64,000 nucleotides of DNA, taken from contig CAVSGI010000010.1 in NCBI GenBank assembly GCA_963727445.1, positions 1,440,001 through 1,504,000 on the forward strand. Direction: 5' to 3'. The position numbers were made by a program, and so were the translations under genes. Numbering within the stretch: the stretch's first letter is position 1; each line of letters opens with the position of its first letter. This document shows positions 54,015 to 61,176 of this stretch, piece by piece. The notes below the pieces were generated by a model. The model was given only the letters and a program-made list of their open reading frames with translations, was not told the origin of the DNA and searched no databases. The stretch comes from an uncultured delta proteobacterium (GTDB taxonomy: Bacteria > Myxococcota_A > Polyangia > Polyangiales > B10-G4).

Positions 54015-54386
54015 TCACCGCCCGTAGAAGAACTCTTCTTTCACGATCTTCCCGTCTTCGACGGTGAAGAGCCCGACCTCGTCCATCTGCATCCGCTGCC
54101 CGGTGGGACGGTTGGTGACGTCGTAATCGAAGCGGACTGCGAAGCGGTCCTCACCGTGGGGATAAGGCCCCTGGACGCCGGCGGAATGCACCTCGTGGAT
54201 CTCGGCCCACATCTCGTTCTTGCCGCGCACGGCGTCGATGCCCTTGGTGACGCGATCGCCCCCGTTCGGCGGAGGTGCCGCCTCGATGCTCACCACGTCC
54301 TTCGCGTAGAAGGTGTTCACGCACTCGACGTTCTTGCCCTCGCGGCACAGCTCGACCAGGCGCTTTCCGATCTCGTTCGCGTTCAT
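54015..54386 (-). CDS. SnoaL-like domain protein
   Basis: RLVELCREG...YAKDVVSIE...MDEVGLFTVEDGKIVKEEFFY; ATG overlaps upstream TGA. Confidence 0.85.
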   Translation of the reverse strand: MNANEIGKRLVELCREGKNVECVNTFYAKDVVSIEAAPPPNGGDRVTKGIDAVRGKNEMWAEIHEVHSAGVQGPYPHGEDRFAVRFDYDVTNRPTGQRMQMDEVGLFTVEDGKIVKEEFFYGR

Positions 54387-56679
54387 GTCTGAAGTCCCTC
54401 CTCGCCGGCGGTCGTCGCCGGCTCCATGGAGGTATGCGACAGTGCTCCTGTCAGCGTCGTGTCAGGAGCCTGTCGTGGGGCGACGAGGAGCTTCGAGAGG
54501 CCCTCGGCGAAGCGCAGCATCTCCTCGATCTCGTCGACCGTGGCGCGGCGCATCAGGGTCTTGAAGACCACCAGCTCGTCGCCGTTGCTCTCGACGTGAT
54601 AGACGGGCTCCTCCTCGAAGAACGAAACCAGCGCTGGGCTCATGAGCGCGACGATGGCTCGTTCGTCCGGACCCTTGAGCGAGTACTTCCGCGAAAACGC
54701 AGGGCTGCCTTCGAGCTCGATGTCGTGAAGGCCAGCCAGCTCGAGGGCGCGTTCGAGCAGTCCCTCCTTCTCCATCACCAGCTCCGGGAGCACGAAGGGC
54801 AAGCGGATCACCTGCACCGTGGTGTGATAGACCTCCGGGATCAGCGCACCCTCGTCGAAGGTCACGTCGCAGAGCATGACCTCGAGCTCGTGCTCGCCGA
54901 TGGCGTGGCTGCCGGTCACGACGGTGTCGCGGTACTCGATGGGGTGCATCCGGAAGAACTCGAAGTAGTCGAGGTGCTCCGGGTCCCAGTCACGCCGGGC
55001 ATCGAACTCCCATCCCCGCGCCTTCGCGAGCTCCGCGATCTTCCGCTGCCGCGCGGTGAGCCGGCGCTCGTGCTTGGCGCGCTGCTGCGCGTGCAGAGCG
55101 TCCGGATGATCGGAGATCGCGGTGTGTGATTCGAGCCCGATGAGCTCGAAAGACGCGTCCTTGAACGCCATCAGCTGCCGGCGCCGGAGCTCGTGGCAGT
55201 ACTCGAGGAAGGTCGTGTCGACCAGCGTGGCTGAGTGGAAGTCGAGGACGATCCGCTCCCCCTTGGGCACCTCGGCATAGGCGCGCTTGAGCCGCGGAAT
55301 GGCCAGACAGCTCGCGATACCGCGGATGCGAAGAAGATACGGACCGTCGCCCTCGTGCTTGATCTCGATCTCGGTCTCGCGGAGCAGCCGCCACGCTTCG
55401 CGCGGGGGCAGGCCCACGATGAGGAAGTGGCCCAGCATCTCGGCGAGGAAGCCCACCACAATCCCCCACAGGAGCCCCCAGCTCATGGTGGCCACGACGG
55501 TGACGCCATAGACGATGAAGTGATCAGGCCCCTTGTGAATCGTGTCCCGCACGACGTGGGGCGCGGCCAGCTTGTAGCCCGTGTAGACCAGGATCGCGGC
55601 CAGGGCCGAGAGCGCGATCTCCTCGATCGCAGATTCGAGCAGAACCACGAAGGCGAGGACGATCATGCCGTGGAAGAAGTTCGACCACCCCGTCTTGGCG
55701 CCGTGGTTCGCGTTGACGGAGCTGCGCGCGATCACCGTCAGCACCGGTAGACCGCCGAGCATCCCGGAGACCATCGAGGAGAGGCCCATCGCCACCAGGT
55801 CGCGATCGAGGCCCGAGCGGCGCCGGTGGGGGTCGAGCTTGTCGACGGCCTTGACGCTCACCACGTTCTCGATGGAGGTGACGAGGGTCATCGTCATCAC
55901 GACGAACCAGAACCGCGGCTCACCGATGCGGGAGAAGTCCGGGTGAACGAGGCTCCCCAGGAGATCGTCGGGAATGTGCACCAGGAGCGAATCCGACAAG
56001 CCCGCATGTCGCGTGAACGCCAGGGCCAGGGGCGCGCTGATGATCACCACCCAGAGAGGCGCCGGCACGTAGTGGACGACCTTCGCCTTGATGCGTGGGT
56101 GAACGATCATGACGGTCAGGCTCACGAAGCCGATCGAGCGCGGCCAGCGGCTCGAGCCCCACCACCGTCTCCGGGAAGCGCTCGAAAGACGTCGATGGGG
56201 CTCGCGTGCGGGGCGCTGCCGCCGAAGAGCACGTGCGCCTGCTTGCCGACGATCATGAGGCCGATGGCGGACAACAGCCCCTGCACCACCGCAGCCGGGA
56301 TGAGATCGCCCAGCTTGCCGAGGCGGAAGAGGCCGAGCGCCACCTGCAGCCCACCCGCCACCACCACGGCGCCCAGGACGTGAGCGAAGGCCCCGCGGTC
56401 GTCGCCGAAGGTCGCGAGCCCCACCGCGACGACCACGATGAGGCTGTTGCCGGGTCCGTTGATGGCGAGGTGGCTGCCGCGCAGGAACGTGGCGAGGACG
56501 CCGGCTATCACCACCGAGACCAGGCCCGAGATCGGCGGCGCGCCCGCCGCCGTCGCGATGCCGAGGGCGAGCGGGAGCGCGACCAACGCGACGCTGAAAC
56601 CGGCGATCAGATCGTCGCGCCAGAAACGGGCGAGGCCCCGGAGATCGGTGCGGGGCGGATCCTTGGATGACGGCTTCAA
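54383..56679 (-). CDS. SulP/SLC26 anion transporter with long C-terminal extension; two single-base insertions near 56171 and 56134
   Basis: DDLIAGFSVALVALPLALGIA, GPGN, GGLPVLTVIARSSVN, LAAILVYTGYKL; removing two bases restores ALPETVVGLEPLAALIGFVSL. Confidence 0.85.
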
Positions 56680-56700: not shown

Positions 56701-58272
56701 CTACGTCGCTCGGGCCGGCTTGTCTGGAGCTGGGGGGCGCTCGGTCAAGGGCTTGGGCGCCATCCGGGCGCGGGGCGTGTGCTTTCCCTGCAGATGCTCC
56801 CACTGGAGTAGGACGGTGCCGCCGCTCGCCTCGTAGGTGTCGCTCCAGCTCTTCATCTGCTCGAGGCACGCGAAGTCGACGTGCACCAGTCGGTCGAGCT
56901 GGACGTGGACGCGCTGACCTCGCGGAAGCGCCTCCAGGGCCTCGGCCAGACGCGGGAGGCTGAGGAAGGTCGCCGCGCCCTCGAGGTGCACGTCGATGCG
57001 ATCCTCGTGGACCTCGGTCTCCACCGAGAGATGACTGAAGGTGTAGATCAGGTGCCCAAAGGACAACACGATGCCGACGATCACGCCGGTGAGCAGGTCG
57101 GTCGCCACGATGGCCGACAGAGTGATCACGGTGATCGCGAAATCGAGCCGGCTACGCCGCCAAACGGCGCGCAGGCCCTCGAGGTCGAGGAGCTTGTAGC
57201 CGGTGTAGACGAGGATGGCGGCGAGCGCCGATCGCGGGATCGTCTCCAGGACGAAGGGGAAGGCGACGACCAGGAGGAGCAGCCACACGCCGTGGAAGAT
57301 GGCGCTCGAACGGGTCTTGGCGCCCGCGTCCACGTTGGCCGACGAGCGCACGATGACGCCAGTCATCGGTAGCGCGCCCACCGCGCCGCAGAGCACGTTG
57401 CCCACGCCCTGCGCGATCAGCTCCTTGTCGTAGCGGGTCCGCGGTCCATCGTGCATGCGATCGACCGCCGATGCACAGAGGAGGGTCTCCGCGCTCGCGA
57501 TGAGCCCGACCGCGAAGCACTCCTCGAGGAACTTTGGATCGCCCAGGAGCGCGAAGCTCTCGGCGGTGGGGATGTTGAAGCCGGCCGTGAGGTCCGCGGG
57601 GATCGCGACGTACACGATGGGGAGCGCGTAGAGGGCGGCGCCAGCGGTGCCCACCACGACGCCGATCAGCGGGCCGGGGACCGCCTTGAGCCTGTCGGGC
57701 TTGAATTGATTCCAGGCGACGAGCGAGGCGATGGTCGCGATGCCCACCATGGCCGCGTGCTGATGGATCCCGGAGGCCGTCGCGAACAGCCCCTCCTTCA
57801 CAGCCGCGGGAATGGTGAACAGGTTCGACAGACCGCTCGCCTTGGGCTCGTCGTCCAACATCACGTGGAACTGGCTCCCCAGGATCAGCGCGCCGATCCC
57901 GGCGAGCATCCCCTTGATGACGGCGGGCGAGACCGCGCGGAACCAGCGCCCGATCCGGAAGAGGCCGGCCAGGATCTGAAGGCCGCCTCCCACCAGGACG
58001 GCGACGCCTAGGGCCGGCAGCCCGTAGTCCTGCACCAGCTGGTAGACGAGCACGGCCAGACCGGCGGCGGGTCCACTCACCTGCAGGGGCGAGCCAGCGA
58101 TGAAGCCGACGACCAGACCACCCACGATCCCGGTGATGAGACCGAGAGCTGGGGGCACGCCGGAGGCGATGGCGATGCCCATGCACAGGGGCAGGGCCAC
58201 CAGAAATACGACGACCGACGCGAGTAGGTCGCGTGGGAAGTTCGCGCGGATGTCTCTTAGCTCTTCGAGCAT
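56701..58272 (-). CDS. SulP/SLC26 anion transporter with STAS-like domain
   Basis: DLLASVVVFLVALPLCMGIA, VSGPAAGL, ASAETLL, LPMTGVIVRSSAN; SD AGGAG. Confidence 0.95.
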   Translation of the reverse strand: MLEELRDIRANFPRDLLASVVVFLVALPLCMGIAIASGVPPALGLITGIVGGLVVGFIAGSPLQVSGPAAGLAVLVYQLVQDYGLPALGVAVLVGGGLQILAGLFRIGRWFRAVSPAVIKGMLAGIGALILGSQFHVMLDDEPKASGLSNLFTIPAAVKEGLFATASGIHQHAAMVGIATIASLVAWNQFKPDRLKAVPGPLIGVVVGTAGAALYALPIVYVAIPADLTAGFNIPTAESFALLGDPKFLEECFAVGLIASAETLLCASAVDRMHDGPRTRYDKELIAQGVGNVLCGAVGALPMTGVIVRSSANVDAGAKTRSSAIFHGVWLLLLVVAFPFVLETIPRSALAAILVYTGYKLLDLEGLRAVWRRSRLDFAITVITLSAIVATDLLTGVIVGIVLSFGHLIYTFSHLSVETEVHEDRIDVHLEGAATFLSLPRLAEALEALPRGQRVHVQLDRLVHVDFACLEQMKSWSDTYEASGGTVLLQWEHLQGKHTPRARMAPKPLTERPPAPDKPARAT

Positions 58273-58432
58273 GGTCGAACGTTCTCCTGTTCACGGTTGT
58301 CGACGTCGATGCACCGCCGGCGAATACCGGCGGCGATCGGCAGGCCGAGCCGAGGCCCTTCGCCGACCGAGGTCAGCGAAGGGTGGGCGTGCGGCTCGGA
58401 CCGACTACGCGCGTGGAGGTCGTTCGAACTCG
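58268..58432 (-). promoter_or_regulatory. Structured leader that could sequester the sulP Shine-Dalgarno sequence
   Basis: Nested inverted repeats: TCGAACG-AC-CTCC (58427-58415) vs GGAG-AA-CGTTCGA (58287-58275); internal hairpins at 58356-58383 and 58314-58333. Confidence 0.65.
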
Positions 58433-58728
58433 TCTGGTGGAGCGTGCGCCGGGCTGTCGCTCACCGAGGCCAGGATCGGCCGGGAGGAGAGCGCGAAGGC
58501 CGCGGCGACCATCACCGAGGCTTCGTCATCCTCGACCTCGAGGAGGTCGACGGCGTCGGGGCCCGGCTGTTCGAAGTGAGCTCCGTCGGGCTGGTCGTGC
58601 TCGATCGACGCCTCGTCGACGTCGAGGACGCTCTGCGCCGCCACGGCCCCACCGATTTCGAGGGGGAAGAGCGCGACCAGGAGGAGCGCTGCCACGAGCC
58701 GTGACGAGGACGATTGCACCGGCTTCAT
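58405..58728 (-). CDS. Small secretory leader protein ending ERPPRA, candidate ribosome-arrest peptide
   Basis: 107 aa; N-terminal hydrophobic signal (RLVAALLLVALFPL...AVAA); acidic spacer; C-terminal HAPPDEFERPPRA. Confidence 0.65.
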   Translation of the reverse strand: MKPVQSSSSRLVAALLLVALFPLEIGGAVAAQSVLDVDEASIEHDQPDGAHFEQPGPDAVDLLEVEDDEASVMVAAAFALSSRPILASVSDSPAHAPPDEFERPPRA

Positions 58729-58752
58729 GTTAACGCCGGCATGGCCAGATAG

Positions 58753-59691
58753 CTAGTCGTCGAAGTGGGCCGCTGTTTGGGGACGGCGATCGACCTCGAA
58801 GCTGAAGACGTCGGGTCTGTTGTAATGGCCGGCGACATCGAGGCTGCGGCGCGATGCGCGCGCTCGATCGGCGTCCACCTCCGCGTAGAGGATGCCCGGC
58901 TCTCCGTCGAGAGGGCCGGCGATGATCCTGCCCCCCGGCTCTGCGACCAGGCTCATCCCGCGGTTGATTCGCTCGTCCGGGTCGGCGAAGAGCTGGTCGC
59001 GCCCCGGAAACCCGCTGGGGACGTCGGATCCGCGCATCGCGCTACAGCAACTGGCCACGTAGCAGCGGCCCTCCCGCGCGATGTGCTGCATCGTGCCGAC
59101 CCAACCGTCGCTGCTGTCCCAGGTCGGCGCGAGGTAGAGATCGATGCCCTGGGCGTACAGGGCCATGCGCGCGAGGGGCATGAAGTTTTCCCAGCAGATG
59201 AGCGAGCCGACGCGCCCTACAGGTGTCTGAACTACGCGAAGGCCCCGCGCATCGCCGAAGCCCCAGACCATCCGCTCGGGATTGGTGGGCATGAGCTTGC
59301 GATGGACGTTGGCGATCGCGCCGTCGTTCTCGATGTGCACGTAGCTGTTGAAGAGCGTCGAGCGACTCTGGGCAGAGTCGATCTCGTCGATGCCGACGAG
59401 GATGTCGACGCCGTGCTTCTCGGCGACGGCCGTGAGTGGTCGCAGGTGACCGGCCGTGAGGTCGACGGCGCTCTTCAGCATCCACGCGTGGATCTCGTTG
59501 GACAGGCCCATGTCGCCGCCGGGACGCAGGCGCCACGCGTAGGTGGGATATCCGGGAACGTATGCCTCGGGGAAGACCACCAGCGCCGCGCCACCAGCGA
59601 CGGCCTCCTCGGCGAGGGAAGCGGCGCGGTCGAGGGTGGCGTCGCGATCTCCGAGAACGGAAGGATGTTGGACGAGCGCGATCTTCGGCAT
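58753..59691 (-). CDS. Nitrilase (carbon-nitrogen hydrolase family)
   Basis: Triad FPEAYVPGYP / HRKLMPT / ICWENFMP; DVAGHYNRPDVF. Confidence 0.93.
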   Translation of the reverse strand: MPKIALVQHPSVLGDRDATLDRAASLAEEAVAGGAALVVFPEAYVPGYPTYAWRLRPGGDMGLSNEIHAWMLKSAVDLTAGHLRPLTAVAEKHGVDILVGIDEIDSAQSRSTLFNSYVHIENDGAIANVHRKLMPTNPERMVWGFGDARGLRVVQTPVGRVGSLICWENFMPLARMALYAQGIDLYLAPTWDSSDGWVGTMQHIAREGRCYVASCCSAMRGSDVPSGFPGRDQLFADPDERINRGMSLVAEPGGRIIAGPLDGEPGILYAEVDADRARASRRSLDVAGHYNRPDVFSFEVDRRPQTAAHFDD

Positions 59692-59733
59692 GCCGCCTTC
59701 TACCATGGGTGACGGAACCCGTATCCTCTGGTC

Positions 59734-60249
59734 GTGAGCCGCGGTTCCTATCGCTTGTTGGCGCTCCTCACGCTGCCCCTGCCGCTGCTGGCGGCCCACC
59801 TGAGCTACGACGCGATCCCCGAATGGCTCCCCGAGGACGTGCTCGTGCCCGCGGCGCTCCTTCGTATTCTCGGGTACCTGCTTCTGGTGCTGCTCTTCGT
59901 GTTGATCTGGGCCTCTCTTCTGGCGCCGCTACGCCGGCGCGCGGGCTTCAGGACGTTGGCGGAGCAGCTTTCCGACCGCAATCTCTCGACGGCGGTCGCC
60001 CGAGCGCAGGTGGCGCAGAAGGAGCGCGCCTCATCGAGCGATCCGAAGGTGCGCGCAGAGCATCACTTCACCTTCGCGCTGGTCAGCGGCCTGATGGGGA
60101 TCGCTGCCGTGGGGATCGGATATGCGCTGTGGCAGGAGGGCTACGTGATGGCCTTCGCCATCGCCGGAATCCTCGTGTGCCCGCCGCTCGCTCTCTACCA
60201 CGGCGTCCAGTGGCTGAGGGCGCTCAGTGCTTCACGACCCCGCTCATGA
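59734..60249 (+). CDS. Hypothetical membrane protein (about 4 TM)
   Basis: Four hydrophobic segments; fills the gap between flanking genes. Confidence 0.6.
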   Translation: MSRGSYRLLALLTLPLPLLAAHLSYDAIPEWLPEDVLVPAALLRILGYLLLVLLFVLIWASLLAPLRRRAGFRTLAEQLSDRNLSTAVARAQVAQKERASSSDPKVRAEHHFTFALVSGLMGIAAVGIGYALWQEGYVMAFAIAGILVCPPLALYHGVQWLRALSASRPRS

Positions 60250-60577
60250 ATGCGGCGACGAGCGGGATCATCCACACGATGATCAACGACAGAAGCGTGG
60301 TGTCGAGCCGCCCGAGACGACGCGCGAGCGCGTGGGCGACCGGACGCGCTTCTTGGGGCGCCGACGCTCGGTGCTGGACGCCGAGCTCGTTCGCTACCGC
60401 GACCCGGAGCACCGCGAGGGATAGAAGCGCGATCGCGCCCGCGACCAGCAGCCAGGTCCAGATGCTGGCTGCAGCCGCCCCGAGCGCGAAGACGCTCGTC
60501 GTGACGGACCAGAGGATGAATGCGATGGCGATGTAGACGGGGGCGCTCATCACCTTGTTGTCGAGGGATCGTTGCAT
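60224..60577 (-). CDS. Hypothetical small membrane protein (start 60577 or 60550)
   Basis: Three hydrophobic segments; non-shadow amino-acid composition. Confidence 0.5.
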   Translation of the reverse strand: MQRSLDNKVMSAPVYIAIAFILWSVTTSVFALGAAAASIWTWLLVAGAIALLSLAVLRVAVANELGVQHRASAPQEARPVAHALARRLGRLDTTLLSLIIVWMIPLVAAFMSGVVKH

Positions 60578-60810
60578 CGTGAGCGCGCCCTCCAGCAATC
60601 CACGTGCCCTCGCGAGTCGCAAAATGCGCGTGCTTCGATCTCGCCGGAACTTTCAACGGGCTCGTGGCGAGAAGAGCAGCGATGCCGCGCCTCGCGGTCG
60701 GGTGTGCATGTCGCGGACGTTCACGAATAGCGGCGCGCTACACGACGAAAAGCGAACCCACGTTCACGCGACTATCTGGCGCGGAGCACCACTCGTTCCG
60801 CCACCTCCTA

Positions 60811-61033
60811 GGGGACGCTAGATTGACAATTGACTTCCGCCTTCTGCAAGGCGCGTTGATCTTCCAGAATCCGGGGTGGCGGAAGTCAATTGTCAACCTA
60901 GCGTCCCCGCACTTCGAGGCTCACGACACGGGGCCCAGGGGACGCTAGGTTGACAATTGACTTTCGCCTTCTGCAAGGGGTCGGCCTTCCTGAATCCGGA
61001 GGGGCGAAAGTCAATTGTCAATCTAGCGTCCCC
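60811..61033. repeat. Two tandem ~97-bp elements with 31-bp terminal inverted repeats (REPIN/MITE-like)
   Basis: GGGGACGCTAGRTTGACAATTGACTTYCGCC at 60811 and 60938, near-perfect reverse complements at 60878-60908 and 61003-61033. Confidence 0.9.
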
Positions 61034-61176
61034 TCTGTCGCCCCCTCTGTCGAGCAAGGGCGGTGCCGAGAATTAATCGCCGAGATCGTTTCGGATCCGG
61101 GTGTGCGGACACGCAACGTTTGCTCGTTCACGCATCCTCGCTGGCCCGTCGCCGGCCGTGCGCTACGGTGCCCGCG

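Follow-up and report, generated by a model that had tools for sequence, protein, structure and literature searches.

The stretch of DNA analysed here (the window) comprises 64,000 nucleotides (nt) of an uncultured delta proteobacterium (assembly GCA_963727445.1, contig CAVSGI010000010.1, positions 1,440,001 to 1,504,000). On its minus strand five genes lie in series, which were read as a carbon-nitrogen hydrolase gene, an open reading frame (ORF) of 107 codons, sulP1 and sulP2, and then SnoaL-like and short-chain dehydrogenase genes. The ORF, here called the leader (product P0001), begins 24 nt after the end of the nitrilase-like gene, and a spacer of 132 nt separates its stop codon from the ATG of sulP1 (58272) on the same strand. 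Judged from the sequence, the leader is likely a conserved small gene for an exported acidic protein that ends in Pro-Pro-Arg-Ala-stop. Moreover, it is tentatively read as a cis-acting regulatory pause leader for the sulP genes, with a confidence just short of even, because analogous upstream ORFs (uORFs), a homologue, a cluster of rare codons and a second ORF of the genome ending in Glu-Arg-Pro-Pro (ERPP) point in this direction. The genes concerned are:

58753..59706 (5' boundary approximate), minus strand: carbon-nitrogen hydrolase (nitrilase-like) gene, PF00795 match 9.6e-45
58405..58728, minus strand: leader ORF P0001, 107 codons plus TAG, coding-like codon usage and G+C content at third codon positions (GC3), homologue P0008
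56701..58272, minus strand: sulP1, 523 amino acids (aa), SulP permease with C-terminal STAS domain, PF00916 match 1.4e-65
54383..56679, minus strand: sulP2, second SulP gene, starting 22 nt after sulP1

The 107-aa product ends in ...HAPPDEFERPPRA-stop. A first-pass annotation of the window had described this ORF, its C-terminus and its distance to sulP, and all three were found where it had placed them. The signal peptide and the acidic segment that it had named were likewise recovered, and both are kept in the homologue P0008. The leader was divided into the following parts:

58636..58728, minus strand: putative export signal, residues 1-31, with a basic N-terminal end, the hydrophobic core LVAALLLVALFPL and an AVA-AQ site
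58519..58560, minus strand: acidic block, residues 57-70, PDAVDLLEVEDDEA, best conserved stretch (alignment A4)
58414..58443, minus strand: codons 96-105 (A P P D E F E R P P), with the rare codons GCT CCA CCA .. GAA CGA CCT CCA
58405..58425, minus strand: proposed pause site, codons E102 R103 P104 P105 R106 A107 and TAG, of which Pro-Pro-Arg-small-stop is kept in P0008

The export signal was called by inspection and with a simple hydrophobic-segment filter; its core corresponds to residues 11-23 and follows K2 and R10. The acidic block ends 36 residues ahead of Pro105. P0001 contains no cysteine, and searches against Pfam (E <= 0.01) and NCBIfam assigned it to no family, DUF2946 included. In a language-model look-up the nearest named clusters were DUF2946 (0.93) and CzcI (0.92), which is a weak lead only.

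The leader has a GC3 of 0.84 and a corresponding second-position value (GC2) of 0.45. Its codon-usage log-odds score, with 3188 long ORFs from the genome as training set, was 0.49, which is the 9th percentile among real genes and a value reached by just 0.7% of off-frame windows. Because its GC3 and codon usage are coding-like and a homologue with 55% identity exists, the ORF is most likely a real gene. The possibility that it is untranslated or a decaying remnant, and that the hairpins of the spacer serve, between the nitrilase-like gene and sulP, as a U-less terminator, an attenuator or a site of processing, is therefore considered very improbable. It would be in line with the leader ATG, which has no recognisable Shine-Dalgarno (SD) sequence in front, with the great stability of the hairpins and the missing homologues among 400 genomes of the order, and with the changes in a strain variant. 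This variant, a 408-nt metagenome contig of 96.6% identity spanning 58411-58818, carries seven amino-acid changes versus three silent ones in the leader ORF (codon reading by hand). The replacements are P3A, S6P, V12L, A28V, V37A, A77T and A87R, while the last 20 codons are unchanged; most of these positions differ between P0001 and P0008 too, and the numbers are too small to weigh. A remnant would not be expected to have coding-like codon usage or a homologue with conserved blocks and no frame breaks, and no terminator-like site was found on the minus strand.

In a word-indexed search of 5.8 billion proteins P0001 retrieved only itself. The profile of alignment A4, run against 401 genomes of the order, returned the source genome and eight matches (E 0.001-0.008) inside long ORFs, which were taken as spurious. 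A profile built from four look-alike uORFs and searched against 1.84 billion representatives found one further protein, P0008, encoded on two JGI metagenome contigs (the longest of 4308 nt), with 55% identity to P0001 over 86 residues (E 2e-29). Common to both proteins are the signal-like N-terminus, the block EQPxPDAVDxLEVEDDEAS, the stretch RPxxAxVxDSPAH and the end Pro-Pro-Arg-(Ala/Gly)-stop. The alignment shows no indel from the acidic block to the Pro-Pro site, and the spacing of 36 residues is identical in P0008. The C-terminal end of P0008 reads DPPPRG, where Asp-Pro replaces the Glu-Arg before Pro-Pro. HAPP (residues 95-98) was tried as arrest site of the leader and rejected: it is lost in P0008, which reads HVHL at this position, and a ribosome standing there leaves intact the helix over the sulP SD described below.

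Rare third bases (A or T) occur in seven of the 13 final leader codons (GCT, CCA, CCA, GAA, CGA, CCT and CCA), each of which represents 4-18% of the synonymous use in the genome. Under genome codon usage this has a probability of P = 4e-4, and only 0.33% of the 13-codon windows in 800 long ORFs are of this kind. All four Pro codons of the two leader Pro-Pro pairs are rare. In the predicted helix the third bases of CGA and CCA are unpaired; the rare codons are therefore not explained by pairing alone, and slow decoding would be a plausible second reason for them.

The frequencies of Pro-Pro motifs were determined in the 3188 long ORFs. RAPP was depleted (17 seen versus 37 expected, observed/expected 0.46), and RSPP (0.48) and RGPP (0.59) were under-represented as well. 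This depletion of RAPP-like motifs agrees with the published avoidance of RAPP and RGPP in proteomes (Fujiwara et al., EMBO J 2025, PMC12992588). PPP was 3.7-fold over-represented in the same ORFs, and elongation factor P (EF-P) is encoded in the genome. ERPP was seen 25 times versus 21.4 expected (observed/expected 1.17); since it is not depleted in the proteome, it is not a strong stand-alone staller here. The earlier proposal of an exported leader with a C-terminal stall motif thus stands in part: a Pro-Pro pause leader is the best reading, whereas an Arg-Pro-rich, RAPP-like motif is supported neither by the DPPPRG end of P0008 nor by the frequency of ERPP.

For a comparison of upstream regions, relatives of SulP were collected from 401 genomes of the order (58 matches, E <= 1e-120) and 401 genomes of the phylum (44 matches, E <= 1e-90), and further loci were taken from species genomes (80) and metagenomes (80). 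The closest relatives with upstream DNA had at most ~64% identity, and hence there was no true orthologous spacer for comparison. The regions upstream of these genes contained, on the same strand, 51 ORFs with a hydrophobic segment near the N-terminus. In 14 of them Pro-Pro occurs within the last 14 residues, and all 14 read R[AG]PP or [ES]RPP; 11 are distinct, since one contig appears as both L166 and L218, and L224 is almost identical to L225. In three phyla SulP relatives are thus preceded by small exported ORFs whose end is R[AG]PP or xRPP followed by 2-5 residues. The carriers are Acidobacteriota, a single cyanobacterium and three Myxococcota other than the source.

The Acidobacteriota ORFs form a family of ~125 aa ending in ...[F/T]x-R-[G/A]-P-P plus 3-4 residues, in which R, P and P are invariant in seven sequences (alignment A1), and they are located 74-141 nt upstream of the SulP relatives. 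The family (loci L144, L165, L166, L171, L175, L183, L223, L224, L225 and L226) additionally shows a basic and hydrophobic N-terminus, the motifs RRGRI..AHH..R and FVFE, and no Pfam family. Homology of this family to P0001 was not detectable (hhalign probability 0.3%). In the cyanobacterial metagenome-assembled genome, a membrane-anchored ORF of 116 aa (L142, 770-1120) ends in NPRAPPIPLC-stop 53 nt ahead of its SulP relative (start codon reckoned by hand). The first-pass annotation had suggested a check for small ORFs ending in xRPP upstream of sulP in Myxococcota, and such ORFs were found in three other members: they end in SRPPRR-stop (L045), ERPPRPASA-stop (L049) and, from the motif scan, FRPPIA-stop (L280), and all three combine a signal with an acidic block (alignment A2). 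Homology of P0001 to the L049 ORF was not demonstrable (BLASTP E 0.015). The L045 uORF has the same CCT CCA pair and seven A/T-ending codons among its last 13, and the L049 uORF has five; the L280 uORF shows no rare-codon cluster.

The genome itself was also searched for comparable ORFs. It has 985 small coding-like ORFs with a hydrophobic segment near the N-terminus, of which 45 (roughly 4-5%) have xPP in the last ten residues and five have R[AGSP]?PP there. Neither RAPP nor RGPP occurs in these five tails, and two of them end in ERPPxx-stop, the leader and the following ORF:

Contig C21, 369440-369886 (locus L297, 2641-3087), minus strand: exported-looking ORF of 148 aa, 158 nt before a DsbA-like gene

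This second ORF contains several Cys, ends in ...ARVERPPQR-stop and shows no rare-codon cluster. The gene downstream of it encodes three DsbA-like thioredoxin domains (PF13462, 3.3e-83).

Control of SulP transporters by arrest peptides had been regarded as undescribed. This view is weakened, as SulP-linked RAPP leaders are already present in published source data: at least 15 rows of uORF_List_RAPP.csv (PMC12992588) have 'SulP family inorganic anion transporter' as downstream product, among them proteins of Haliangium ochraceum and of metagenome-assembled genomes ending in RAPPRA, RAPPQD and RAPPSR, some with acidic blocks. SulP is not mentioned in the main text of that paper, and a whole-word search of one paper library found no paper pairing 'SulP' or 'bicarbonate transporter' with 'arrest peptide'.

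One further element was examined and rejected as a conserved leader end. At locus L024 (G020:C7, 1320-1346), a SulP relative is preceded at 133 nt by CAGTTTGAGCGACCTCCGTTTGTTTGA, which codes for ..QFERPPFV-stop (FERPPFV-stop at -157); 13 of 15 bases are identical to the end of the window leader, at the same distance. The frame runs over 45 codons from stop to stop and overlaps a divergent FHA-like ORF, it adjoins a promoter-like TTGACA..TAAGAAT, and its fold has z = -1.5. The pattern TTYGARCGACCTCC had ~128 matches in the 401 genomes, of which only that at L024 lies before a SulP relative. The element could be a remnant, a mini-uORF or a coincidence, and it was not used as support.

Several observations weigh against a pause leader. 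Only weak matches within long ORFs and no credible homologue of P0001 were obtained in 40 relatives, and the leader had no homologue among the 400 genomes of the order. Arg103 is not conserved in the only homologue, and the last 12 residues of P0001 and P0008 are the least conserved and the middle the most conserved, a pattern which would also be expected of a protein that has its own function. By the RAPP-like definition, which demands [R/Q/H]-[A/G]-P-P, or RAGP/RAPG, at the arrest site, with an irreplaceable Arg three positions ahead of the A-site Pro (PMC12992588), both the leader ERPP and the DPPP of its homologue fail. The absence of ERPP avoidance and the amino-acid changes of the strain variant belong here as well. 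Furthermore, a strand control for transmembrane-segment ORFs with an R..PP tail gave 12 of 95 in sense and 3 of 57 in antisense orientation, which is not convincing alone; the case for SulP-linked leaders would thus rest on the coherence of the families and not on the strand count.

These observations could also be accounted for by a small acidic protein of the ordinary secreted kind with a periplasmic function, for instance as a transporter partner or cation binder, that is merely co-transcribed and whose Pro-Pro end and helix are incidental, such folding being usual for a G+C-rich spacer. This explanation is rather unlikely. It agrees with the conservation of the central acidic block over the C-terminal tail, with the unremarkable frequency of ERPP in the proteome and of Pro-Pro tails among the 985 ORFs, and with the ordinary RNA energies reported below. 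It leaves unexplained that in all Pro-Pro-tailed SulP uORFs an Arg stands beside or one before Pro-Pro, 2-5 residues from the stop, and likewise the rare-codon cluster, the second ERPPxx-stop ORF before the DsbA-like gene and the published RAPP uORFs before SulP genes.

The connection between the leader end and sulP was analysed at the level of the RNA. The last leader codons had been noted as complementary to the SD and spacer of sulP: TTCGAACGACCTCC corresponds to 58428-58415, and the complementary GGAG-AA-CGTTCGA to 58287-58275. Folding of 58250-58450 (minus strand) with RNAfold gave exactly this closing helix in a three-way structure, in which the leader end pairs with the sulP ribosome binding site (RBS) around two very stable hairpins. 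Its elements are:

58401..58432, minus strand: 5' arm of the closing helix (CGAGUUCGAACG..CUCC.CGCG.GU.GUCGG), last 9 leader codons, stop and 4 further nt
58345..58399, minus strand: intergenic hairpin 1, extended stem of ~21 bp, no U tract
58307..58339, minus strand: intergenic hairpin 2, G+C-rich stem of 10-14 bp, no U tract
58266..58301, minus strand: 3' arm of the closing helix, with the SD GGAG (58287-58284), the spacer CGUUCGA, a 4-nt bulge that contains the AUG and, from codons 1-3, GCUCG

The minimum free energy (MFE) of this fold was -97.3 kcal/mol, with z = -4.62 versus 200 shuffles. In the MFE structure the closing helix is extended across the AUG by CGAGU:GCUCG, and the 132-nt spacer is nearly all base-paired. 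In a 389-nt context each of the four CUCC:GGAG pairs had a pair probability of 0.99. When the leader end was recoded synonymously (n=3000), the native duplex of -22.6 kcal/mol compared with a mean of -18.5 (sd 2.1); 3.3% of the recodings pair with the RBS arm as well as the native sequence, which is better than 96.7% of them. In most MFE folds of the Acidobacteriota loci, the purine-rich SD is paired with the C/U-rich codons that follow RGPP.

These results have to be weighed against a number of controls that speak against SD unmasking. The duplex energy is matched at the same distance by 71% of 1500 control genes of this genome, which has 69% G+C. Opening the sulP RBS (-16..+3) costs 12.4 kcal/mol versus 12.75 +/- 3.7 in 400 control genes, 52% of which have a cost as high or higher, and the genes of the genome in general are predicted with masked RBSs. 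The stem is only weakly stronger than chance. With a modelled ribosome footprint (P site at Pro104 or Ala107) the SD re-pairs with other partners: the probability of being unpaired is 0.05-0.1 for three of the four SD bases, and the mean unpaired fraction over -16..+3 shifts from 0.354 to 0.325 and 0.36. At L045, L049 and the C21 locus the end of the uORF is not predicted to pair with the SD. In Acidobacteriota the advantage of cognate over non-cognate pairing is marginal (permutation p = 0.056), and RNAalifold returned no consensus structure for nine spacers. The first-pass idea of a stem opened, and an SD freed, by the stalled ribosome was therefore not borne out by the model or by the analogous Myxococcota loci. 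Thermodynamic folding of such G+C-rich RNA discriminates poorly, however, and unmasking of the SD by a paused ribosome may still be a plausible step.

A pause leader might instead be coupled to sulP through transcription or mRNA survival, the held ribosome shielding the spacer from Rho or nucleases while the SD helix is not decisive. For this route, which is improbable, the precedent is CruR, where arrest at RAPP keeps Rho from terminating transcription within a spacer of 162 nt (PMC9426467). It would fit the analogous loci, where spacers of 120, 215 and 158 nt occur without pairing between uORF end and SD, and the failure of the modelled footprint to free the SD. An almost wholly base-paired spacer is, on the other side, poor loading ground for Rho, and the preference of the native codons for the RBS arm and the near-certain pairs of the closing helix also speak against this route. 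Given a pause leader, coupling to sulP would probably occur by SD unmasking.

The pause-leader reading of the window would then work as follows. Formation of the peptide bond at Pro104-Pro105, flanked by Arg and decoded from the rare codons CGA, CCU and CCA, would be slow, and the length of the pause would be set by the pulling of the nascent chain through SecYEG. When Pro105 is decoded, the acidic block 36 residues back would be located roughly at the tunnel exit or the translocon. The held ribosome would cover the 5' arm and leave the sulP RBS open for loading, as in the CutF/SecM route, or alternatively it would shield the 132-nt spacer, as in the CruR route. In either case the paused ribosome would raise the expression of the downstream sulP genes.

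By analogy the leader likely groups functionally with the switches of the CutF, CruR and RAPP-uORF type, while it fails the RAPP-like and DUF2946 sequence definitions. CutF of the Rhodobacter capsulatus cutFOG operon has a Sec signal, a CxxxC copper sensor and a stem-loop shielding the cutO SD; its Pro-rich C-terminus with nearby positive charges does not stall by itself, and a paused ribosome is proposed to unfold the stem (PMC9973294). The leader resembles it as a small, apparently Sec-exported protein directly upstream, with a predicted stem over the next SD and a Pro-rich, positively flanked end, which is R-P-P-R-A-stop here and P-P-P-R-G-stop in P0008. It differs in that P0001 has no cysteine, and so no CxxxC, and no match to DUF2946 (PF11162), and in that a SulP permease and not a multicopper oxidase follows; stall and control in the leader are deduced from the sequence.

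RAPP and RGPP cluster close to the C-terminal end of small proteins, secretory or membrane-bound, that are encoded ahead of genes of diverse function, including those for TonB receptors, YcnI, PCu(A)C, PepSY and DsbA-like proteins, for which arrest-based regulation was proposed (PMC12992588). With these uORFs, the RQH family (PMC10987492) and ApdA/ApdP, the leader shares a length of <300 aa, an N-terminal localisation signal, the same-strand upstream position and Pro-Pro near the stop (two residues before it in the leader), whereas it lacks a conserved [R/Q/H]-[A/G]-P-P and its ERPP is not avoided. CruR (Bp2923, DUF2946, Bordetella pertussis; PMC9426467) is similar in being exported, in its C-terminal Pro-Pro three residues before the end, in the long G+C-rich spacer before a transporter gene and in a sensing motif whose distance to the pause site is fixed; it differs by RAPP, CxxC and Rho-dependent termination, as the leader has no Cys or RAPP and its spacer is fully structured. 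In SecM-secA a signal peptide, a C-terminal arrest site and an SD-sequestering stem disrupted by the stalled ribosome are combined (PMC10987492). The leader has no FxxxxWIxxxxGIRAGP-like motif, and sulP is not export machinery: in the Sec/YidC monitors SecM, MifM and VemP an export or insertion component lies downstream, here instead a SulP permease.

With regard to the neighbouring genes, a tandem SulP operon had been proposed. The two SulP genes, 22 nt apart, are in accordance with this, whereas the second is split over two reading frames in the assembly, with the switch between 56134 and 56173 (frameshift or assembly error). sulP2 has ~330 extra C-terminal residues beyond its STAS-like region without a Pfam match. 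The PF00916 match of sulP1 covers residues 13-384, and its STAS_2 match (1e-4) is below the cut-off of that family. As sulP1 scores under the NCBIfam cut-offs of DauA, sulP and BicA, its substrate is not assignable. At L139 (412-1182), L109 (470-1144) and L203 (17-697) the gene immediately 5' of the SulP relative encodes a beta-carbonic anhydrase (PF00484, E 1e-47 to 1e-52), which hints that this SulP clade may carry bicarbonate or inorganic carbon.

The nitrilase-like protein matches TIGR04048 with 2.6e-50, below the family cut-off. The ~1.3 kb 5' of its gene (59700-61060) contain only ORFs without a Pfam match (59562-60536, plus strand; 60195-60656, minus strand), and the promoter of the cluster may lie in this region. 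No sigma-70-style promoter was found in 58000-60200, other promoter types being outside the reach of the scan, and the only terminator-like site in that range is on the plus strand, inside sulP. A comparison of all Rfam families with 58000-59000 (E <= 10) gave no match, and the intergenic spacer has no second copy elsewhere in the genome. No RNA run was listed as containing this DNA.

In a wider form of the pause-leader reading, which taken as a whole is decidedly improbable, SulP genes of Myxococcota would be gated by exported leaders of a non-RAPP type (x-R-P-P or P-P-P, then Arg, a small residue and stop). The acidic block 36-43 residues behind Pro-Pro would be pulled electrophoretically through SecYEG, the pause length and hence the uptake of the anion, possibly bicarbonate, would read membrane potential or periplasmic pH, and the same ERPP device would be reused before the DsbA-like oxidoreductase gene of the genome.

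If the leader acts as proposed, nascent-chain-mediated control would reach anion transport, beyond export machinery and metal homeostasis. Lineages could then use a weak rare-codon Pro-Pro site with a flanking Arg in place of a strong RAPP, and such a weak pause site would make the switch more dependent on the sensing part of the chain. The conserved acidic block, with its constant spacing to the pause site, would be a candidate natural voltage or pH sensor. Such leaders are mostly uncalled or orphan ORFs, and since the profile of four uORFs found a single further protein among the 1.84 billion representatives, searches combining motif and context are needed to see them.

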